Source: an uncultured Candidatus Saccharibacteria bacterium | Lineage (GTDB): Bacteria > Patescibacteriota > Minisyncoccia > Phycocordibacterales > PALSA-1337 | Length of the DNA stretch: 36,330 nucleotides | Reading direction: 5' to 3' | Assembly (NCBI GenBank): GCA_964637485.1 | Contig: CAZWUU010000002.1 | Span: 1-36,330, forward strand | In this document: positions 9,670-32,807 of the stretch, one piece after another | Numbering within the stretch: position 1 is the first letter of the stretch | How the letters are laid out: every line of letters begins with the position of its first letter | The notes under the pieces: generated by a model | What the model saw: only the letters and a program-made list of their open reading frames with translations | Databases searched by the model: none | Told to the model about the DNA's origin: nothing | Translations under genes and position numbers: made by a program

Positions 9670-11652
9670 TTAGAGATTGTTTGGAGTCCTCCATTCTGGC
9701 TGATTGGCCATGAATGTAGTGATAGTAGCACCTGCGTTAGTTACAGAGTTGATACCTTGTAACTGTACGGCGTACTTGTCAGTTGTAACTGCGAAGTTTG
9801 GAACCGAGAAGGCAAACTCAACTGGGACAGTGACCTCACCGTTCCTTGGAAGAGTGAAGGTTGTACCATCGCTAGAAAGAGTGGTGCCTGTCGGCCTCGA
9901 GTAGTTAACTGATACAGAACGGCCGTTGGTGATGTAGTTTGCTAGACCACCGTCAGCTGCTGTAGTGCTGTAGTTGCTTACGCTGTTCTTATACACAGTG
10001 AAGGAGCTCGTAGCAACAGATGAAGTTGCGGTCGAGAACATATCCTGTGTGGTTGAGCTGGTCAAACCGAACAATATGTCGGTACCGACAGCCCTGACCT
10101 TGACGTTGAAGCGTGCTGTGAAGGTTGTTGTTGAATTGCTGTCTACACCGTTAGCAACTGTGGTGTAAGTGATGGTCGGAGTTCCTACGAGTGTGTAGAG
10201 AGGACCGACTGAAGCAATTGTCTGTGTGTTACCTGTAGCTGCACCGTTTACTGTAACTGTCGAGTCATTTGATGACAAGATAGTCTGAGTACCTGTGGTT
10301 GAAGCTGTAACAGTCAATGAACCTGATGTCACGCCAGTTACGTCCACCTTGACGGTGTAAGGAACTGTTGTGTTTACAGATACGACTGAACCAGGTGTGC
10401 CCTTAGCGATGTTGCTGAATGAAGCAACGCCACCAGAGACTGAAGCTGAGCTGACCATGGTGCTACCCTGATAGAGGTAAGCTGCACCAACTGAACCAGT
10501 TCCGCTTGTAACAACACCAACGTTTATAGTGCGAAGCTGAAGAGCATCGTTCTGAGCGTTGACATTGAATACGAGGACAGGCAAGCCGAGGTACTGACCA
10601 TTTGTTGTGTCATTTACCGGGATTGACTGTACGAGTGGTGATTCAGGAGCGAGAGAGACGTTTGCCTGAGCATTATCAACCAATGACTGGTTGACTGTCA
10701 AAGCCTGATAGAAACCGGTGACTGGACCATAGAGGTTCAAACCGGCACCATCAACACCTCGAACTCCGTTAGCTACGACACCAAGACCCCAACCTGTGAA
10801 GGCTGTTGCATTGATGCTGTTCTGAGCTGTTCCAATACCATCAGGATAATTTGAACCTGAGGCAGAATAGTAAGAAGAGTCAATTGAAGAATTCAAAGAA
10901 CCCTTGATGACTATATCCTTGTATGTGCCCTTCGGGACGAAGAAGTGGAATCCAGCGATACCCAAGAGGTATTCTGAACCACTCTGTACAACTGTTGATC
11001 CATTCAAAGCTTGTGAAGCAAGGACGGTGTTGCCGTCTGTCACAGCGATGGTGTGGAAGAGCTTGTTGTAGATAGCTGTGTTGTTACCGACGTTGAGGGT
11101 CAAGCTCTGGACATCGAGGTCAGAGTATTGAGCCTGAACACGGATTGTCAAAACAGGTACCATCTGCTGACCTACGTTCAAAACTGTGTTTGAGATAGGA
11201 CCAGCTGTAACTGTCATGATTCCTGGTACGCCAACTGTGGTGATACCACCGCCAGTTGAACCACCTGAGACTGGAGCTGTTCCAGCGACTGGAGTACAAA
11301 CGAAACCTGCAGGGCAGGTGACGGTTGAAGGAGCGCCAGCCATAGGAGCTGTTCCGCCATTCAAAGCTGCGCGGGTCAAAGGACCTACGAAGCCGGTGTT
11401 AGGAATACCGCGAGCGGCCTGATAAAGCTTAACTGCAGCCTGTGTCTGTGATCCAAAGTAACCCTTGGAAGCAGCACCGGATGCGATTGCAGGAATATTG
11501 TAGCCAGCAGACATAAGAGCTGTCTGAAGAGCAACAACCTGAGGGCCTGATGATCCAACACTCAAATTAGTGGTGAACACAGCACCCTGAGCTCCAGCAA
11601 CTGTAGCAAGAGCCAAAACGGCTATGCCTGTTGCAAAGAGAACTTTTTTCAT
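9670..11652 (-). CDS. Abundant-looking secreted surface (S-layer-like) protein with an N-terminal peptidoglycan-binding domain and a long Thr/Ser/Val/Gly/Asn-rich beta region
   Basis: Sec signal MKKVLFATGIAVLALATVAGAQG. PG_binding_1-like segment (GPQVVALQTALMSAGY...SQTQAAVKLYQAARGIPNTGFVGPLTRAAL). Low-complexity beta-rich remainder. The gene is visibly more GC-rich and codon-biased than its neighbours. Confidence 0.8.
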   Translation of the reverse strand: MKKVLFATGIAVLALATVAGAQGAVFTTNLSVGSSGPQVVALQTALMSAGYNIPAIASGAASKGYFGSQTQAAVKLYQAARGIPNTGFVGPLTRAALNGGTAPMAGAPSTVTCPAGFVCTPVAGTAPVSGGSTGGGITTVGVPGIMTVTAGPISNTVLNVGQQMVPVLTIRVQAQYSDLDVQSLTLNVGNNTAIYNKLFHTIAVTDGNTVLASQALNGSTVVQSGSEYLLGIAGFHFFVPKGTYKDIVIKGSLNSSIDSSYYSASGSNYPDGIGTAQNSINATAFTGWGLGVVANGVRGVDGAGLNLYGPVTGFYQALTVNQSLVDNAQANVSLAPESPLVQSIPVNDTTNGQYLGLPVLVFNVNAQNDALQLRTINVGVVTSGTGSVGAAYLYQGSTMVSSASVSGGVASFSNIAKGTPGSVVSVNTTVPYTVKVDVTGVTSGSLTVTASTTGTQTILSSNDSTVTVNGAATGNTQTIASVGPLYTLVGTPTITYTTVANGVDSNSTTTFTARFNVKVRAVGTDILFGLTSSTTQDMFSTATSSVATSSFTVYKNSVSNYSTTAADGGLANYITNGRSVSVNYSRPTGTTLSSDGTTFTLPRNGEVTVPVEFAFSVPNFAVTTDKYAVQLQGINSVTNAGATITTFMANQPEWRTPNNL

Positions 11653-21401: not shown

Positions 21402-21407
21402 GAAAAC

Positions 21408-21416
21408 ACTCTAGCA
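21408..21416 (-). promoter_or_regulatory. Extended -10-like TGCTAGAGT 6 nt upstream of the M16 peptidase ATG
   Basis: The minus strand reads TGC-TAGAGT-GTTTTC-ATG (ATG at 21401). Confidence 0.35.
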
Positions 21417-21427
21417 AAAAAGCCCGC

Positions 21428-21468
21428 AAAATGAAATGAAAAATCCCGCCTCCTATGACAGAGGCGGG
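21428..21468 (-). terminator. Intrinsic terminator (minus strand)
   Basis: Minus strand: CCCGCCTC-TGTCATAG-GAGGCGGG followed by ATTTTTCATTTCATTTT. Confidence 0.75.
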
Positions 21469-21660
21469 GGTTGATTGTTTGCCGAGTAGCTATCCGAGTC
21501 GCAGGAAGCTACAAGGCGGCCGATGCGTTGGCGATATTCTTGTTGAGGCGGATCGAGCGGGCGGTGGGGTCGTGATTATGGCGCATGTTTCGGGGATCTC
21601 CAGATGCTGTATTCAACAGGATTCCAATGATAGGAAACCGCAAGGAACAGCTGGAAACAA
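21428..21660 (-). ncRNA. GC-rich structured noncoding island (candidate sRNA, riboswitch-type leader or long glyQS 3' UTR); family unknown, strand uncertain
   Basis: About 230 nt without a credible ORF, clearly more GC-rich than its flanks. On the minus strand it is bounded by a TTGCAA-16 nt-TAGTAT promoter-like element (21687-21660) and the terminator at 21428-21468. Base composition argues the other way: the plus strand is the G/U-rich one. Confidence 0.35.
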
Positions 21661-21712
21661 TACTAACAAACGACTATATATTTGCAAGTGTATTATTTCT
21701 GAACTTTGTATA

Positions 21713-25081: not shown

Positions 25082-25669
25082 CTACAAATGACTGAATTTA
25101 AGGGCTTTGTTTATTTTTGGATTGATCACACCTATGTCGGCCGAAGCTTTTCTGAGCATCTCTGCTGAGATTTTTTCATTAACGATATATTCAGTTCGAG
25201 GGTCATTTTCTATATAACCCAGAAGGAACAGTATCTTGTAGACTATGACAGATTCTAGACATTTTACATCCTGAGGCGATAAAGACCCACCGAGATCAAG
25301 CATGGATTCCCTGATCACTCGGAAAAGTTCAGGGTGAGACTCCTCGCCCTGCAATAGTCGTCTTAGCAGGCCCGCTACACGACACGCCAGCTCGTATCTA
25401 GGATCATCGACCTTCAATACGGTCTGGTAATCCGCTGGTTGTGCGCTGGTCAATCTGTAGTAGTCTTTACCTCTTACGAGTGAAAAATCTCCGAAAGAAT
25501 AGTCCTGGCAATAATATCTTAGTTTAGATTTTTCAAATCTTATTCCTTGAGCAATCGCGGCCACGAATCCGAGCTTATCGGTAAATATAAACAGCATTTT
25601 GTCGGCCTCGCCTTTTTCCATGGAGCCGACTATAAACCCTGAAGTGTTAATAATCGAGTACATACTCAA
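25082..25669 (-). CDS. recO: DNA repair protein RecO (short form)
   Basis: N-terminal OB-like segment (GFIVGSMEKGEADKMLFIFTDKLGFVAAIAQGIRFEKSKL) and a helical C-terminus with ...LFLLGY. Its start overlaps the ileS stop by 4 nt. Confidence 0.65.
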   Translation of the reverse strand: MSMYSIINTSGFIVGSMEKGEADKMLFIFTDKLGFVAAIAQGIRFEKSKLRYYCQDYSFGDFSLVRGKDYYRLTSAQPADYQTVLKVDDPRYELACRVAGLLRRLLQGEESHPELFRVIRESMLDLGGSLSPQDVKCLESVIVYKILFLLGYIENDPRTEYIVNEKISAEMLRKASADIGVINPKINKALKFSHL

Positions 25670-28600
25670 AACTTCAAATCCAAAGTCGGACCATATTCTA
25701 CAGAGGAAATCTTCGTGACTTTCATGATTGCATCAATATTTTTCGTAACCATTGTCCGAAGATCTTCAGTCACAACTAGGACAGCGACGTCCTTTATGGT
25801 TAACCCTTTCGATTTTCTCAAGTCTTGAACTTTTCGTAAGAATTCCCTCAACTCCCCTTCTTCTCTCAATTCATCGGTTATGTTTGTATCTAGTTCTACT
25901 GAATTTTTTATGTTTTGATCGAAAACAACCGACTTGATATTGACTTCGTCTTTTATGATCTCAATCATTTCTTCAGACAATTTCTTGAAAGCCATATTAT
26001 TTACAGATAACTTATGAAGCGGTTGTCTGACATTTATTTTTGACTGCATTCTGGCATCCAGTCCAGCCGAACAGACAGCACGAACCACTTCCATCTGGTC
26101 CAATATTTTCTTATCCGCCTTCTTCATTTTTGGCCATTTTTCCAGATGAACGCTCTCTGATTTGCCTCCCATTTCCATGTATATTTCCTCAGCAAAAAAT
26201 GGAGTAAACGGCGCCAATACTTTTGACAGTTCGAGCATTACATATTTTAGAGTGGAAAGGGCTTGCTTCTTATCTCCTCCATTATTCTTGAAACGGTCTC
26301 TGGATCTCCTGACATACCATTGGGACAGATCGGCGGAGAAGTCTCTTAGAGCCCTGGTTGGTTCGAAGAATTTGTACTTATCCATACTTTCGGCTGTAAT
26401 CATCGACAGTTCGGCCAATCTAGCAATTATCCACTTATCAAGAATATTTTTCGAAGAGTCCTTTGCTTCCACACTTCCATCATCGTAAAGCTTATAAAAT
26501 GAGATAACATTGGAAATGAGGTTGAAAACTTTCTTGACTATCTCATCGACTGTTTTTTCTTCGAAATTCTTCGACTCACCAGGTTGATTGATAGAATACA
26601 TCCACAATCTGAGAGCATCCACGCCATATTTATCCATCATGTCCCAAGGATTTACGATATTACCGAGCGATTTCGACATCTTTTTGCCATCCTTATCCAA
26701 GATATGTCCCAAACAAACGACGTTTTTATATGATCTACCCTTGCCCATGATGACTCCGATAGCATGCAAGGTGTAAAACCAGCCACGAGTTTGATCGATG
26801 GCTTCCGAGATAAAATCTGCCGGATACGCAAACGAGCCAAAAACAGATTTTTTTTCGAACGGATAATGATCCTGAGCGAACGGCATACCTCCAGAATCAA
26901 ACCAAACATCCAAAACTTCTTTAACTCTTCTATATTTACCCCCACAGGAACAATCCAGAACGACATCATCTATAAATGGCTTATGGAGGTCAGATTCATA
27001 TTCTGAATTATGAGGCAAAATTTTGAAATCAAGCTTTCTACACTCAGCATTTTTTATAGCATCCTTATCAGTTCTTGCGTTCAAAGTCTGCTTTCTATCT
27101 AGACCTTTTGCGGCAGATTCGAGGAGGAATATTGGCGTTTCGTGAGAAATGATCAGTATTTTCTTACCTTTATATTTCGATTCGATATCATACAGGAAAT
27201 CTCCCATCCTTTTTTTGATCAGAGCAAAATTCTCTATACCTCCCTCACTCAGAGTAAATCGATCTTGGCCGACATATTGCTTGTGATAATCATCCACCTT
27301 TCTGCCATTCCACTCGCCGGTGCCGAGTTCGCCCAATCTTTCATCAATGACTATCTGACTATCAGCAAGATTCTGAATTGATTTCACTATATCCGCAGTT
27401 TCTTTAGTCCTCACGAATGGCGAAACAAAAACCATATCGAACTTCTGCTTTTTAAATGAAGTAGCAGATTTTTCCACCTGCCTTCTGCCCTTATCGGTCA
27501 GGTGATGTGGAGCATCGGCGATTCCAGACAAAATACCCAAAACATTATTTTCTGCCTCACCATGTCTCATCACAAAGTAATCATTCTCTGGAGATCGGGC
27601 AATTTCAGAAATTGAACCGGGCACTTTTCTCTTTTCACACTTATCGCATATCCATACAGGTAAAGGCGTCCCCCAATATCTCTCCCTAGAAATTGCCCAG
27701 TCCTTGATTTCTCTGAGCCATTCTCCGAACCTTCCCTCTTTGATGTGATCCGGCTCCCAATTTATCTTATCGTTGGCCTTAACGAGTTCATTTCTAAGAG
27801 ACGACATCCTGATGTACCAGGAATCCCTAGCAAAATAGATAAGAGGCGTCTTACATCGCCAACAAAACGGATAGGTGTGTTCATACTTTTCCTTGGCAAA
27901 CAGAAGACCTCGACTAGCCAAATCCTTTATTATCGCCACATCAGTCGTTTCATCCTTTACGAAGGCACCCGCCAGAAATCCAGCTTCGTTTTTAAATGTG
28001 CCATCATCAGATACAAGATGATATTTTGGTAATCCTACTTTAGTTCCCAATTCAAAATCATCCTGACCATACATGACCGCAGTATGTACAACTCCTGTAC
28101 CATCAGCAGTCGTCACAAAATCAGCACTATACACCTTGTAGGCATTACATAGCTTGGATTTTTCTGAACTGGATATATTTTGTGCCAAAAAAGGATACAG
28201 GGGTTCATACACGACTCCGACAAGCTGTTTCCCTGCTACTATCTTCAATATTTCGTACTTGGCATCTTTCATGACAGACAAACGTTCCTTGGCCAAGATA
28301 AGTGTTTCTCCCGTTTCTATTTTTATTTCGCAGTACTGTATCTCGTCTGAAACTGCCAATGCCACGTTGCCTGGCAATGTCCAAGGAGTCGTCGTCCAAG
28401 CCAGAATAAATGTATTGTCGCGATCTTTTAGCTTGAATTTTACATAAACCGAAAGATCTTTGACCACATCATAGCCCTGTGCCAATTCATGAGAGGACAA
28501 TGCCGTACCACACCTAGGACACCACGGGACAACTTTATAATCTTTATATAATAATCCTCTATCGTCAGCATTTTTTATGATATTCCAAATAGATTCTATG

Positions 28601-29046
28601 TATTTGGCTTCATACGTGATATATGGATTTTTCAAATCAACCCAATAGCCTATTCTTTCTGTAAAGTTTTCCCACTCTTTTACATATTTCCAGACAGACT
28701 CCCTACACTTATTATTAAATTCGCCAATACCATATTTCTCAATATCTTTTTTTGATTTAAGACCTAATTCTTTTTCCACCTGTAATTCAACAGGTAATCC
28801 ATGAGTATCCCAGCCGCCTTTCCTGCGCACACGATAACCCAACATCGTTTTATATCTAGGTATAGCGTCTTTGAATGCTCTGGCTTCAAGATGGTGTATG
28901 CCAGGCAGACCGTTTGCCGTCGGTGGCCCTTCATAAAATACAAAATCTCCTTTTGGAGATTTCTTCTCCAGTGTCTTTTTAAATATTTCCTTCTCTTGCC
29001 AGTATTTGAGGATTTTTTCTTCCTTTTCAGCTCTTTGACTCTTCAT
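25666..29046 (-). CDS. ileS: Isoleucyl-tRNA synthetase with an inserted histidine-phosphatase (PGAM-like) domain
   Basis: PPTANGLPGIHHL (HIGH-type), CP1 editing motifs TTTPWTLPGN and HTAVMYGQDD, WAISRERYWGTPLPVW, DVWFDSGGMPF and KMSKS (aa 789-793). An extra ~190 aa at aa ~488-675 is described in the next feature and in the findings. Confidence 0.93.
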   Translation of the reverse strand: MKSQRAEKEEKILKYWQEKEIFKKTLEKKSPKGDFVFYEGPPTANGLPGIHHLEARAFKDAIPRYKTMLGYRVRRKGGWDTHGLPVELQVEKELGLKSKKDIEKYGIGEFNNKCRESVWKYVKEWENFTERIGYWVDLKNPYITYEAKYIESIWNIIKNADDRGLLYKDYKVVPWCPRCGTALSSHELAQGYDVVKDLSVYVKFKLKDRDNTFILAWTTTPWTLPGNVALAVSDEIQYCEIKIETGETLILAKERLSVMKDAKYEILKIVAGKQLVGVVYEPLYPFLAQNISSSEKSKLCNAYKVYSADFVTTADGTGVVHTAVMYGQDDFELGTKVGLPKYHLVSDDGTFKNEAGFLAGAFVKDETTDVAIIKDLASRGLLFAKEKYEHTYPFCWRCKTPLIYFARDSWYIRMSSLRNELVKANDKINWEPDHIKEGRFGEWLREIKDWAISRERYWGTPLPVWICDKCEKRKVPGSISEIARSPENDYFVMRHGEAENNVLGILSGIADAPHHLTDKGRRQVEKSATSFKKQKFDMVFVSPFVRTKETADIVKSIQNLADSQIVIDERLGELGTGEWNGRKVDDYHKQYVGQDRFTLSEGGIENFALIKKRMGDFLYDIESKYKGKKILIISHETPIFLLESAAKGLDRKQTLNARTDKDAIKNAECRKLDFKILPHNSEYESDLHKPFIDDVVLDCSCGGKYRRVKEVLDVWFDSGGMPFAQDHYPFEKKSVFGSFAYPADFISEAIDQTRGWFYTLHAIGVIMGKGRSYKNVVCLGHILDKDGKKMSKSLGNIVNPWDMMDKYGVDALRLWMYSINQPGESKNFEEKTVDEIVKKVFNLISNVISFYKLYDDGSVEAKDSSKNILDKWIIARLAELSMITAESMDKYKFFEPTRALRDFSADLSQWYVRRSRDRFKNNGGDKKQALSTLKYVMLELSKVLAPFTPFFAEEIYMEMGGKSESVHLEKWPKMKKADKKILDQMEVVRAVCSAGLDARMQSKINVRQPLHKLSVNNMAFKKLSEEMIEIIKDEVNIKSVVFDQNIKNSVELDTNITDELREEGELREFLRKVQDLRKSKGLTIKDVAVLVVTEDLRTMVTKNIDAIMKVTKISSVEYGPTLDLKF
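27022..27585 (-). other. In-frame histidine-phosphatase superfamily (phosphoglycerate-mutase-like) domain embedded in IleRS
   Basis: aa ~488-675 carry RHGE (494-497), SPFVRTKETA (Arg546), ERLGELGTGEWNG and ISHETP (His635). Together these make up the full branch-1 catalytic motif set. Confidence 0.75.
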
Positions 29047-29111: not shown

Positions 29112-30830
29112 TTACATTTTATGCGGAACCTTTATTCCGAGTATATCCAGACCGCTTTCGACAATTTCATAGAATTTCCTGGTCAATGCCAGTCTGTATG
29201 AAGACAAACCTTCCGAATCGTCGATGATCGTATGCATAGAATAGTAATTATTATATGCACCGCAAAGGTTTATAAGATAATTAGCGATGAGTTGAGGTGA
29301 TAATTCATTGATTGCTCGACTTGTAATATCATCGAACCTGGAAATCAATCTTTCCACATCATGAACCTGGGAAGGATATCTACTTATCGGCGTCGTTTGA
29401 ACATTCATGCTTTCAGCTTTCTTTAATACGGAACGAGCTCTGACTGCCGTATATTGCAGATACGGTCCAGAATCTCCTTCGAATGAAATAGATTTCGCAG
29501 AATCAAAGATCACATCTCCGCCGACGGACTGACGGAGGATCGTGTATTTGATCGCTGCTATGGCTACGGTTTCACTCACTTGATCTTTTTCCGTATCTGA
29601 CCAATCCCTGTCAGCGACTTTTTTTATGACCATGTTCTTGATATCTCCGATGAGCTCTTCCGCACTTATGATATTCCCCTTCCTCGAAGACATCTTCCCA
29701 TCCCTAAATCTCATCATTCCATGACTTATATGGAGGGTCTTTTCGCCAACTTTTGTATTTATGACTGACAAAACCTTCCTTAGGACTCGGAAATAATCAT
29801 CCTGCTCATTTGCTGTGATGATGATCGACTTCGACAAATCTGGGTACAATTCGAATTTCAGCGTATTCAAACCCAATTCTTTTGTTTCGTAAGTGGGTAT
29901 GCCCTGCGAGGTCACGAAAACTCTGGTATGAAGGCCGTCCTTTTCTCCCTTATAGACAATAGCACCGTCGCTTTTCTCGAAAACGCCAGATTTCGCAAAC
30001 TTATCGACGACTCGTAGACCATCGTGCACGACTTCACTTTCGAAAAAATATTTATCAAACTTTGTACCTAGCAAAGAATATATTCCTTCGAAATAATCGA
30101 GACTCCATTTGCGTCCCATGTCATATATAGCATTGATTTCTTGATCACTACGATCAAATATCTTCATGTTTATGACCGCCATCTCTTTTTTTACAGCCGG
30201 ATCATCCTCGCATTGAGAACCTGTGACATACATATCACCTAGCCATTTTACTTTTTCCACAACCGTTCCCTTCATGGAAGACATATCTACCGAAGTTTTC
30301 TTGTCCTTATTCATGATAGCCCATATGGTTTTTGCCACATGAAGGCCGACATCGCCCTGATAACATGCCCTTATGACCTTATATCCGCCCTTTTCGAACA
30401 ATCTAGCCACAGATTCGCCGATAGCATTCGCCATGAGATGACCAATGTGGAAAATTTTGAACGGATTTGGATCAGTGTACTCGACCATAATCGTCTTTGT
30501 ATTTGAAACAGCCGAAGATTTGGATCTGCTGGTCGAATTATCAATAATGAAATCTAGATAATATCTTGGTTCCATTTTGAAGTTTATAAACCCAGGTCCA
30601 GCAGTCTCTATGGCAGAAACAAGGGAAATATTTTCATTTTGGAGTCTCAGAACGATTTCGTTAGCGACAGCAATTGGATTTTGTTTGGCCTTCTTGGCTA
30701 TTATCATGGCGACATTAGTTGAAAACTCCCCCCGATCATCGATTGGAGGATAGTCGAGAGCTACCTCAACATCATGGAAACCCATATCAAATATAACTTT
30801 CTGTATCTTTTCTTTCAGCAATTGTTTCAT
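29112..30830 (-). CDS. argS: Arginyl-tRNA synthetase
   Basis: 572 aa with an N-terminal Add-1-like domain, HIGH-type FHIGHLMANAIG, and a DALR anticodon-binding C-terminus ending ...HKM. Confidence 0.92.
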   Translation of the reverse strand: MKQLLKEKIQKVIFDMGFHDVEVALDYPPIDDRGEFSTNVAMIIAKKAKQNPIAVANEIVLRLQNENISLVSAIETAGPGFINFKMEPRYYLDFIIDNSTSRSKSSAVSNTKTIMVEYTDPNPFKIFHIGHLMANAIGESVARLFEKGGYKVIRACYQGDVGLHVAKTIWAIMNKDKKTSVDMSSMKGTVVEKVKWLGDMYVTGSQCEDDPAVKKEMAVINMKIFDRSDQEINAIYDMGRKWSLDYFEGIYSLLGTKFDKYFFESEVVHDGLRVVDKFAKSGVFEKSDGAIVYKGEKDGLHTRVFVTSQGIPTYETKELGLNTLKFELYPDLSKSIIITANEQDDYFRVLRKVLSVINTKVGEKTLHISHGMMRFRDGKMSSRKGNIISAEELIGDIKNMVIKKVADRDWSDTEKDQVSETVAIAAIKYTILRQSVGGDVIFDSAKSISFEGDSGPYLQYTAVRARSVLKKAESMNVQTTPISRYPSQVHDVERLISRFDDITSRAINELSPQLIANYLINLCGAYNNYYSMHTIIDDSEGLSSYRLALTRKFYEIVESGLDILGIKVPHKM

Positions 30831-30837
30831 AAGGCGA

Positions 30838-30846
30838 ATTGTAACA
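30838..30846 (-). promoter_or_regulatory. Extended -10 (TGTTACAAT) 7 nt upstream of the argS ATG
   Basis: The minus strand reads TGT-TACAAT-TCGCCTT-ATG (ATG at 30830). Confidence 0.45.
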
Positions 30847-30902
30847 GAGCCCTTATCAGCCTGCTATTTGACTTTTTATATTTTATAGGTTAATCTGCTT
30901 AC

Positions 30903-31086
30903 AGAGAGGTCGCGCATGCGAAGAAAACCGATGTCCTACGCCGCCTAACGATATGGCATCGGGAGCGTATTAGCCCCTCCCTGCTCCTTCGCAAAACCCT
31001 CCGTCGTCTCCGAGTGACCGAAATGGTCATACGCAGTCGGTCACTCGGAGCGACGCCCAACCGCAATCATTGATTGCGGTTTTTTA
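30903..31086 (+). ncRNA. GC-rich, highly structured noncoding island; candidate stand-alone ~185-nt sRNA. The alternative is a minus-strand riboswitch-like leader of argS. Family unknown.
   Basis: Plus strand: TTGACT (30868-30873), 17 nt, TAATCT (30891-30896). This is followed by nested hairpins including a 19-bp stem (31002-31055), and ends in a perfect terminator at 31060-31086. No ORF of 60 aa or more on either strand. Confidence 0.4.
31060..31086 (+). terminator. Intrinsic terminator (plus strand), placed convergent to the glyA 3' end
   Basis: ACCGCAATC-ATT-GATTGCGGT (9-bp perfect stem) followed by TTTTTTATT. Confidence 0.75.
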
Positions 31087-31102
31087 TTACTCCGGATTAG
31101 TT

Positions 31103-32308
31103 TTATTTAATTTGTGCTTTTCTTAGAATCAAGTCGATCTTTCTGGCGATCTTGATCATATCTTTCTCTTTCTTGCCTCTTGTTGTTTCAGCTGCCGTGC
31201 CAAGACGAATACCCGATGGATCCATCGGCGTTCTGCTGTCAAAAGGAATTGCGTTTTTATTCACAATAATACCCTCCTTCTCGAGAACATCACTTGCGAT
31301 CTTACCCGGCACGCCTCCTGCTCCTTTTTCATTTATTACATTACTCATCCAAGTATCAACCAGTATGAGATGTGAATCTGTTCCGCCAGAAATGATCCTC
31401 CATCCGAGATTTTTAAGCTCATTAGCCAGCGTATTTGCATTTTTTACCACCTGCAGTGCATAACGAACAAAACTTTTTGAATCAGCTTCTCTTAGAGCGA
31501 CCGCGATTCCTGCTATCTGATTTATATGCGGACCACCTTGCAAGCCGGGAAATACTGCTTTGTCTATTTTCTTGTCTAATTCTCTAGCATCTTTTTTTAC
31601 AAAAATCATAGCCGATCTTGGTCCGCGTAATGTCTTGTGAGTGGTAGTAGTCACAATATCAGCATGCAAAAACGGTGAGGGATATGCGCCTCCAGCGACC
31701 AAACCAGCGATGTGAGACATGTCTACCATAAGTAGCGACTCGCTCGCATCAGCGATATTTCTCATTTTCTCCCAGTCAATGTGTCTCGGATAGGCTGTAT
31801 AACCGGCCACGATAACATTTGGTTTTTCTTTTATAGCTTGCTCCATCAACTGATCATAATTTAATGTTTCAGTCACAGGATCAATACCGTAAGGAACCTG
31901 GGTCCAAAACTTACCGGTAGCTGACACTTTATGTCCATGGGTCAAATGTCCGCCATGATCGAGAGACATGCCCATTATCTTCCCTCCCTGCGGAACTGTT
32001 GCCGTATATACCGCCAAATTTGCCGGCGATCCAGACAGAGGTTGGACATTCACATGCCATTTTTCCTTATCAAGTTTGAACAATTTTAGAGCTCTTTCGA
32101 TACATAAATTTTCTATCTTATCTACTATTTCATTGCCTCCGTAATAACGCTTCCCTGCATAACCCTCGGCATATTTATTGGTCAATTCTGAACCGAGAGC
32201 TTCCAGGACATCTTTAGAAACATAATTTTCCGAAGCAATCAGATTTATTACCTTCTTTTGTCTGACCTGCTCTGCTTTTATCAGTTTTTTTATTTGCACA
32301 TCTTTCAT
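31103..32308 (-). CDS. glyA: Serine hydroxymethyltransferase
   Basis: SHMT throughout (LIASENYVS, PLP-lysine region TTTTHKTLRGPR). ATG 32308 (MKDVQIKK...) is preferred over the track's 32365, which overlaps dut. Confidence 0.93.
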   Translation of the reverse strand: MKDVQIKKLIKAEQVRQKKVINLIASENYVSKDVLEALGSELTNKYAEGYAGKRYYGGNEIVDKIENLCIERALKLFKLDKEKWHVNVQPLSGSPANLAVYTATVPQGGKIMGMSLDHGGHLTHGHKVSATGKFWTQVPYGIDPVTETLNYDQLMEQAIKEKPNVIVAGYTAYPRHIDWEKMRNIADASESLLMVDMSHIAGLVAGGAYPSPFLHADIVTTTTHKTLRGPRSAMIFVKKDARELDKKIDKAVFPGLQGGPHINQIAGIAVALREADSKSFVRYALQVVKNANTLANELKNLGWRIISGGTDSHLILVDTWMSNVINEKGAGGVPGKIASDVLEKEGIIVNKNAIPFDSRTPMDPSGIRLGTAAETTRGKKEKDMIKIARKIDLILRKAQIK

Positions 32309-32316
32309 GGTTTTTG

Positions 32317-32325
32317 ATTGTAACA
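32317..32325 (-). promoter_or_regulatory. Extended -10 (TGTTACAAT) 8 nt upstream of glyA ATG 32308
   Basis: The minus strand reads TGT-TACAAT-CAAAAACC-ATG, in the dut-glyA gap. Confidence 0.4.
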
Positions 32326-32333
32326 CGAAAAAA

Positions 32334-32756
32334 TTATTTTCCCGTACTCCCCATGCGACCCCCACCTCTCTTGGTTTCGTTCAATTTATCGACTAGAACT
32401 ATATCTGGATTTTCAATTTTCTGAATTAGCATTTGAGCAACCTTGTGGCCCTTAAGAAAGGTATATTTTTTATTGGATATATTCGCCATCCCTATCATGA
32501 TTTCCCCTCTGTAGCCGGAATCAATAACTCCAGCCAAAACTTTTAAGCCTTCTTTTATAGATATTCCGCTTTTATCCCACACAAGGCCCACATAACCAGA
32601 TGGTATTTCCATCGCAATACCACTCTTTACCGGCCTTATCTCTCCAGGAGCAAAGGTTGTATCTTCCAGAGCAAATAGATCCATACCCGCATCGCCTGGA
32701 TGTGCGTACTTCGGAACAACTGCTTCATTGTGCATTTTCTTGACCTTGATTTTCAT
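32334..32756 (-). CDS. dut: dUTP pyrophosphatase (dUTPase)
   Basis: Trimeric dUTPase motifs (PGDAGMDL, GVIDSGYRGEI, RGGGRMGSTG). ATG 32756 (MKIKVKK...) is preferred over 32792. Confidence 0.9.
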   Translation of the reverse strand: MKIKVKKMHNEAVVPKYAHPGDAGMDLFALEDTTFAPGEIRPVKSGIAMEIPSGYVGLVWDKSGISIKEGLKVLAGVIDSGYRGEIMIGMANISNKKYTFLKGHKVAQMLIQKIENPDIVLVDKLNETKRGGGRMGSTGK

Positions 32757-32773
32757 ATTATTAAAATATACTG

Positions 32774-32782
32774 TGATATAAT
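32774..32782 (+). promoter_or_regulatory. Extended -10 (TGATATAAT) for thyA, back-to-back with the dut -10 (TATATT on the minus strand, 32770-32765)
   Basis: TG 32774-32775 and TATAAT 32777-32782. The thyA ATG at 32808 gives a leader of about 19 nt. Confidence 0.45.
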
Positions 32783-32807
32783 CGCACTGCAATCATTTTT
32801 TTTCAAC

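Follow-up and report, generated by a model that had tools for sequence, protein, structure and literature searches.

A putative plus-strand small RNA gene in the glyA-argS gap of a candidate-phyla-radiation bacterium

The gap between the minus-strand genes glyA and argS of an uncultured candidate-phyla-radiation (CPR) bacterium probably houses an independent, structured, non-coding small RNA (sRNA) gene of approximately 184 nt, which is encoded on the plus strand and lies antisense to both neighbours. The gap is part of a 36,330-nt stretch of DNA (the window), which is contig 2 of a 635-kb genome (42.6% GC, 99.6% complete); the ArgS relatives of this host are labelled Candidatus Paceibacterota / Parcubacteria. 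The sequence data show gene-like signals with a defined strand, purifying selection on the RNA body, in which changes are restricted to loops, a lack of coding potential and the absence of the element from Rfam. Expression of the RNA, and its start at the site proposed below, we infer from the DNA sequence. The predicted RNA is an orphan and lineage-specific, falling outside the described families.

A preliminary description, made from the sequence alone, had drawn attention to a GC-rich, hairpin-dense island without a credible open reading frame (ORF) in AT-rich surroundings, and had read its plus strand as a unit with a promoter and a terminator of its own. Analysis of the locus upheld this reading. 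The island ranked sixth in GC content among the intergenic stretches of the genome, and the longest ORF on its RNA strand comprised 16 aa when an ATG start was required and 19 aa when any start was allowed. It was present once, and the rest of the genome had no repeat of it; BLASTN analysis of the island against its own genome and 40 relatives returned only the self-match.

The promoter-like arrangement of TTGACT, 17 nt and TAATCT (30868-30896) was present exactly where it had been described. Transcription was predicted to start 7 nt after the -10 element, at an A residue; consistent with a start at about this position, the 6 nt between the -10 element and the sequence AGAGAGG were scrambled between the window and its close relative L209, and conservation began at AGAGAGG. 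The terminator was also found, with a stem that was read here as 10 bp plus T6; a gap of 16 nt separates the end of its U-run from the glyA stop codon. The same stem, read on the minus strand, has A6 before it and GGGCG after it, so that termination would be expected on the plus strand only.

Close relatives of the locus were reached only via a protein homology search; neither BLASTN nor locus scans yielded a near relative, and exact-protein look-ups with ArgS and GlyA were empty. The relatives L209 (JGI Ga0268731_1007367) and L210 (Logan SRR26425197), whose ArgS is 92% identical to that of the host, retained the order dut-glyA-gap-argS, which is continued by ileS in L210. In a three-way alignment of these loci the promoter elements were identical, and over its 184 nt the RNA body differed by four substitutions and two indels, the loss of one C and the gain of 2 nt, all of which were confined to the tip of helix P3, the P4 loop or the P5 loop (Table 1). 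In L209, the P4 loop had one substitution and the one-C deletion, and the P5 loop had a G-to-A change besides the 2-nt insertion; all 45 of the base pairs of P1 to P5 were identical, and the terminator was also free of changes. The chance that five to six such events would all miss the strong helices was 0.004-0.011. The RNA body was 97.8% identical to that of L209, compared to 89.6% identity at four-fold sites of argS (Fisher p = 0.00075). Because the identity of the body exceeded that of the argS four-fold sites and the changes avoided the helices, the predicted RNA body is considered to be under purifying selection beyond that on neighbouring synonymous sites.

The same pair of genomes provided a separate observation. 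At four-fold sites the window and this relative were 90% identical in argS and 51% identical in glyA and dut (51.5% for glyA in the comparison with L209), despite similar protein identities of 92-93% and 89%. The jump in identity falls right at the RNA terminator and glyA stop (window 31087-32792 compared to L209:109-1762), and its position suggests a recombination boundary at that point.

The glyA-to-argS order was kept by most members of the Genome Taxonomy Database (GTDB) genus, with a gap of about 0 to 800 nt. An antisense TTGAC[AT], 15-18 nt, TAnnnT arrangement adjoining argS was present in 39 of 61 gaps, whereas over the same 330 nt the sense strand had such a match in 3 of 61. These counts correspond to about 60% of the genus genomes on the antisense strand and 5% on the other. 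In the genus relatives the -10 element took the form TAnnnT at 16-18 nt (TAATCT, TAAACT, TATAGT, TATGAT and others). A GC hairpin followed by a U-run was also found in 37 of the gaps, 142-370 nt downstream and abutting the glyA stop; the 37 predicted RNAs (142-370 nt) that are bounded by the antisense promoter and the terminator are referred to here as slot RNAs. In several congeners, G013 and G007 among them, glyA and argS nearly abut and there is no island. ArgS-anchored searches of genome and metagenome contigs yielded only relatives with at most 55% ArgS identity, and none of the 50 loci had an antisense TTGAC promoter beside argS. In the Patescibacteria isolate REEB144 (L023:2839-3000) the glyA-argS spacer was an unrelated, near-perfect 22-bp outer inverted repeat around two hairpins, and lacked an antisense TTGAC -35 element.

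The 37 slot RNAs had no shared ORF, start or frame, and the position and length of their ORFs were patternless. A small-protein gene at the island was ruled out, as no ORF was conserved.

Folding of the plus strand between 30897 and 31092 gave an energy of -80.7 kcal/mol (z = -6.5), and none of 200 dinucleotide shuffles was as stable. Both the minimum-free-energy and the centroid folds had the same overall architecture, namely a four-way 5' domain (P1-P4), followed by P5 and the terminator hairpin. The nested stems GCGAAG/CTTCGC, CCGATG/CATCGG and GGAGC/GCTCC, which had been picked out by eye on the DNA, were all located at the positions given for them and were reproduced by the plus-strand fold; the 19-bp stem with one bulge was found in both the sequence and the fold. 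The alternative pairing of TGACC with GGTCA that had been proposed for the loop of this stem fared less well: it can be drawn on paper, but the ensemble is dominated by the 19-bp stem, and in the close relatives this loop contains an insertion. G-U pairs 30934/30956 and 30967/30982 are possible on the plus strand only.

Table 1. Features of the predicted RNA gene and its neighbours (positions in the window)
Feature	Position	Strand	Basis or remark
-35 element TTGACT	30868-30873	plus	Sequence; identical in L209 and L210; TTGAC[AT] at the same place in 39/61 genus genomes
-10 element TAATCT, 17 nt 3' of the -35	30891-30896	plus	Sequence; kept in close relatives
Predicted ~184-nt small RNA, A30903 to U-run	30903-31086	plus	Inferred start 7 nt after the -10
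5' domain, P1 and P2 enclosing P3 and P4	30904-31001	plus	Minimum-free-energy and centroid folds; 26 pairs, all identical in L209
P1	30904-10 / 30996-31001	plus	Predicted fold
P2, GCGAAG(G)/(C)CTTCGC	30917-23 / 30987-93	plus	Predicted fold
P3, CCGATGTC/GGCATCGG	30928-35 / 30955-62	plus	Predicted fold
P4, GGAGC/GCTCC	30963-67 / 30982-86	plus	Predicted fold
C-rich 14-nt apical loop of P4, UAUUAGCCCCUCCC	30968-30981	plus	Unpaired in fold
P5 hairpin, 19 bp, one bulged U, 15-nt loop	31002-31055 (31002-31021 / 31037-31055)	plus	Fold; 19/19 pairs invariant in L209
Intrinsic terminator, 10-bp stem (31059-31081), 3-nt loop, U6	31059-31087	plus	Sequence; U-run on this strand only
argS start ATG (30830-30828) and extended -10 TGTTACAAT (30846-30838), 7 nt apart	30828-30846	minus	Sequence; bounds the RNA, outside it
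argS	29112-30830	minus	Pfam
glyA (serine hydroxymethyltransferase)	31103-32365	minus	Pfam

The slot RNAs of the genus shared little beyond their frame. The 37 RNAs were not globally alignable, and global MAFFT/RNAalifold analysis of 21 of them revealed no consensus structure. The only recurrent motifs were C/U-rich tracts (GGUUCCUC, AAACCUC and CCUCC), which are comparable to the C-rich P4 loop of the window RNA. The motif GGUUCCUC was present in 20 of the 37 slot RNAs (0.6 expected) and UCCUC in 28 (8.6 expected), and seven carried AAACCUC immediately 5' of the penultimate hairpin. Directly upstream of the terminator, a long hairpin rich in GC was also recurrent, with sequences that differed between genomes. 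When RNAalifold was applied to a four-species subset, 44 consensus pairs were obtained, of which 16 had compensatory changes; among these pairs are those of the penultimate hairpin and of a long-range helix, Pc, whose 5' boundary lies a few nucleotides ahead of GGUUCCUC and whose 3' boundary immediately precedes AAACCUC. The sequence of Pc was wholly different in each genome (CAUAUGAUU/AAUCAUAUG, UCAAAUAGC/GCUGUUUGA, ACACGCGUC/GAUGCGUGU, UUCCACCAU/AUGGUGGAA and others). A positional search for helices around the GGUUCCUC core gave a mean of 6.70, compared to 5.33 ± 0.22 in shuffles, a value that was reached by none of 200 shuffles.

The window RNA lacks GGUUCCUC and shares with the slot RNAs the slot itself, the type of promoter, a closing helix (P2) followed by AAAACCCUCC, a long penultimate hairpin and the terminator. 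ArgS of the host is at most 58% identical to that of any congener. The positional orthology of the window RNA with the slot RNAs is clear from this arrangement of predicted features; homology of the bodies is unproven, since the covariance model of the window RNA gave only non-significant matches in the other slot RNAs (see below). The differing bodies may reflect either extreme divergence or replacement within a fixed expression frame.

About 20 congeners (L161, L163, L167, L084, L162, L170, L173, L188 and others) carried a slot RNA of 250-370 nt with a common core, in which (A)UUCAGACGA...UCGGUUCCUC is enclosed by a covarying helix and is followed by AAACCUC, the long hairpin and the terminator. 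No Rfam match was obtained for this RNA, and the GGUUCCUC-core RNA looks like an undescribed structured RNA family.

Several results weigh against an independent plus-strand RNA gene, or against a simple view of what it does. The -10 element TAATCT agrees with TATAAT at only three of six positions, and for this reason the TTGACT-17-TAATCT arrangement was absent from the list produced by a generic promoter scan; the credibility of this element derives from its conservation in relatives and not from its match to the consensus. Folding energy did not discriminate between the strands, since the same 150 nt gave z = -4.5 on the plus strand and z = -3.7 on the minus strand. The strand is assigned here from the expression signals. 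The covariance model built on the window RNA (R1) recovered only L209 (197.9 bits) and the window RNA itself (196.2 bits); its matches in other slot RNAs were non-significant (E 0.15-5), and in 92 other genus genomes there was no match at E ≤ 0.05. In the comparison with relatives the body was conserved and the helices were all invariant in L209, so that the helices are supported by invariance and by where the changes fell; there was no covariation in the window RNA's own helices, because no helix position had changed in the close relatives, the sole alignable ones, which are too close. No relative of 70-90% ArgS identity was present in the collections that were searched. Finally, it is doubtful that the C-rich loop has a general role in targeting Shine-Dalgarno (SD) sequences, because the genome is almost devoid of them.

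The preliminary description had been unable to match the island to signal recognition particle (SRP) RNA, 6S RNA, RNase P RNA, transfer-messenger RNA (tmRNA) or T-box RNAs, and in agreement with this, no Rfam match was obtained for the island. At the gathering threshold, Rfam 15 detected only 23S rRNA in the whole window, and when positions 30780-31150 were scanned more sensitively (E ≤ 10), only snR61, RUF1 and isrK appeared (E 1.3-4.6), far below their cut-offs. As these three chance-level matches were the only ones, the faint ykkC-type resemblance that had been noticed on the minus strand found no support. The slot RNAs of 18 relatives also had no Rfam match.

The other housekeeping RNAs were considered in turn. 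RNase P RNA was ruled out by the copy located elsewhere in the genome (C22:5696-6033), as was tmRNA, for which RF00023 placed the genomic copy at C24:5434-5795 beside smpB. With default settings aragorn reported no tmRNA in the host genome, despite a match to RF00023 of 98.6 bits directly beside smpB; absences of tmRNA in CPR genomes that are based on aragorn should be distrusted. SRP (4.5S) RNA was ruled out because there was no motif, no model match and no Ffh or FtsY. The SRP RNA model RF00169 had no match in any of 31 genus genomes. The Ffh/FtsY domain PF00448 was found in none of these 31 genomes and in a single genome of 61 that represent as many families of the order, compared to 14 of 14 controls; the sole match comprised 41 positions in a 941-aa frame. 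A tblastn search of the host genome with an Ffh probe gave noise only. The SRP pathway appears, on this genomic evidence, to be missing from the host and its genus, and since Ffh and FtsY are absent no SRP RNA is expected.

The remaining housekeeping candidate, which we regard as improbable, is a divergent RNA beyond the reach of the Rfam models; its most plausible identity would be 6S RNA or a similar RNA that binds RNA polymerase. At about 184 nt the predicted RNA has the size of 6S RNA, its strong -35 element and fixed position throughout the genus would suit such a role, and 6S RNA, the sole housekeeping RNA unaccounted for, was undetected anywhere in the host genome. The host also relies on extended -10 promoters, which one account (PMC1874619) describes as the class most sensitive to 6S RNA in Escherichia coli. 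The predicted fold, however, lacks the rod shape with its large central bubble and consists of a four-way junction with two separate hairpins, the two ends of the predicted RNA do not pair with each other, and the slot RNAs range in length from 142 to 370 nt. RF00013 gave no match at E ≤ 10, a weak test, given that this model also missed 7 of 14 control genomes, archaea included. The other housekeeping RNAs were either located (RNase P RNA and tmRNA) or not expected (SRP RNA). Literature searches on sRNAs or 6S RNA in Patescibacteria and on loss of the SRP in CPR bacteria returned nothing pertinent.

The island might instead be read on the minus strand, as a cis-regulatory leader of argS (a riboswitch, T-box or attenuator) that senses a ligand or tRNA and controls read-through. 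Such a layout had been pointed out in the preliminary description: on the same DNA, an aminoacyl-tRNA synthetase (aaRS) gene lies downstream of the island, whose minus strand carries a CCGAUG/CAUCGG hairpin followed by UUUUCUU. Folds of the minus strand were stable as well (z = -5.1 and -3.7). The argS promoter speaks against the proposal. The sequence TG(T/C)TACAAT, followed after 6-7 nt by ATG, recurs before argS throughout the genus, and in the host it corresponds to the extended -10 element TGTTACAAT. In the genome as a whole, TAnAAT occurred within 4-18 nt upstream of the ATG in 21% of long ORFs, compared to 2% in a control window, and the hexamer most often ended 6-7 nt before the ATG, while GGAGG and GAGG preceded only 0-1% of long-ORF starts. 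Because TAnAAT lies so near the ATG and GGAGG and GAGG are nearly absent, host mRNAs are predicted to be largely leaderless and SD-less. Since the extended -10 element sits 7 nt before the argS ATG, the argS transcript is predicted to start downstream of the island, at the ATG or 1 nt before it, and the island would lie upstream of the promoter and outside the 5' untranslated region of argS. The UUUUCUU tract is merely the complement of the A-rich P2-P3 junction of the plus-strand RNA. Furthermore, no minus-strand promoter precedes the island, which directly follows the glyA stop, the only intrinsic terminator of the island points away from argS, models for T-box, ykkC and other riboswitches had no match at E ≤ 10, and congeners such as G013 and G007 do without the island altogether. 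An argS leader is therefore very improbable.

It is also quite improbable that the island has no RNA function at all and represents a spacer that stabilises or insulates the 3' end of glyA, or a palindromic mobile-element remnant, with a fortuitous match to a promoter. In favour of this view are the unrelated and strongly palindromic spacer of the more distant L023, which has no promoter, the turnover of slot bodies between species and the fact that expression of the RNA is deduced rather than observed. Against it, the island is a single-copy element, and the promoter and terminator are one-stranded in the genus, as described above. For the hairpin to terminate glyA transcription, a U-run would have to follow it on the minus strand, where there is none. 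Conservation of the body exceeds that of the adjacent synonymous sites, its changes avoid the helices, and compensatory variation is present in the slot RNAs.

The independent plus-strand RNA gene remains the preferred reading. Transcription would proceed from a sigma-70-type promoter, which is back to back with the promoter of argS, and would end at the intrinsic terminator upstream of the glyA stop. The RNA would then fold into the P1-P4 four-way domain, presenting the C-rich 14-nt loop, with P5 and the terminator hairpin 3' of this domain. The slot would house a similarly expressed RNA gene in most of the genus, the bodies of which would have diverged beyond recognition between species. That the RNA acts in trans, by base-pairing or by binding a protein through its exposed C/U-rich segments, is a tentative possibility. 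The recurrence of exposed C/U-rich tracts in the slot RNAs suggests that these tracts pair with G-rich partners or are recognised by a protein that binds pyrimidines. A scan for SD-led candidate targets was too unspecific to be of use.

A broader idea, which is speculative and on balance unlikely, is that the argS-divergent spacer constitutes a genus-wide RNA gene slot with a fixed expression frame, made up of a strong -35 element back to back with the argS promoter and a terminator at the glyA stop, in which the body is remodelled between species but always displays anti-SD-like tracts (GGUUCCUC, AAACCUC, CCCCUCCC). If this were true, the slot RNA could regulate the few SD-led genes of a mostly leaderless lineage; alternatively, it could be a new class of RNA that interacts with the ribosome or with an RNA-binding protein.

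Other features of the window and genome were recorded. A second GC-rich (59%) intergenic island without an Rfam match was located at 21402-21712 of the window and may be another orphan RNA gene. Further GC-rich islands (57-70% GC) were found at C43:1-412, C14:12279-12721, C24:3859-4323, C13:1447-1898 and C6:4229-4447, none of which had an Rfam match at E ≤ 0.01; the C14 island has a GGTTCCTC motif, but neither a promoter nor an enclosing helix was evident there. Elsewhere in the genome, Rfam models matched at C27:3436-3556, C14 ~9782-9843, C47 ~651-898 and C39 ~631-684. The matches comprised a LOOT RNA (80.8 bits), an AdoCbl-II riboswitch (38.7 bits) and a group I intron in the 23S rRNA gene (50.1 bits), together with a sub-threshold type III hammerhead (32.2 bits, compared to a cut-off of 48.5). 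Within the window, the isoleucyl-tRNA synthetase encoded at 25666-29046 had a complete histidine-phosphatase domain (His_Phos_1) inserted at residues 491-670.

CPR genomes are very small and almost nothing is known of their RNA-based regulation. A predicted RNA gene that has a strong promoter and a constrained structure, is missing from Rfam and is retained at one position across a genus of some 90 species-level genomes offers a testable entry to the biology of sRNAs in these bacteria. The locus also illustrates that GC-rich intergenic islands in AT-rich genomes can be RNA genes and are not necessarily leaders of the adjacent gene. Taken singly, the predicted RNA adds another orphan to the known sRNAs; it would become far more valuable if the recurrent C/U-rich motifs were to define a shared mechanism.

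When compared to known systems, the predicted RNA gene resembles the T-box and riboswitch leaders of aaRS genes in that it is directly upstream of such a gene and that the gene strand allows a hairpin with a U-tract after it. It differs from them in its location upstream of the argS promoter, in the opposite-strand signals, in the lack of a model match and in its absence from some congeners. With 6S RNA (RF00013) it shares a similar length, an apparently strong constitutive promoter and poor conservation of primary sequence at a fixed locus; unlike 6S RNA, it has no rod of closing stem, central bubble and apical stem, and it has a terminator hairpin of its own. The orphan trans-acting sRNAs of Gram-positive bacteria of the RsaE/RoxS type are stand-alone genes that display C-rich loops. 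There is no sequence or covariance-model similarity to these sRNAs, and the host has almost no SD sequences for such an RNA to target; the likeness is one of layout only, and consists of a sigma-70/sigma-A promoter, an intrinsic terminator, several stable hairpins, no coding potential, and a C-rich motif both in an apical loop and in a linker.

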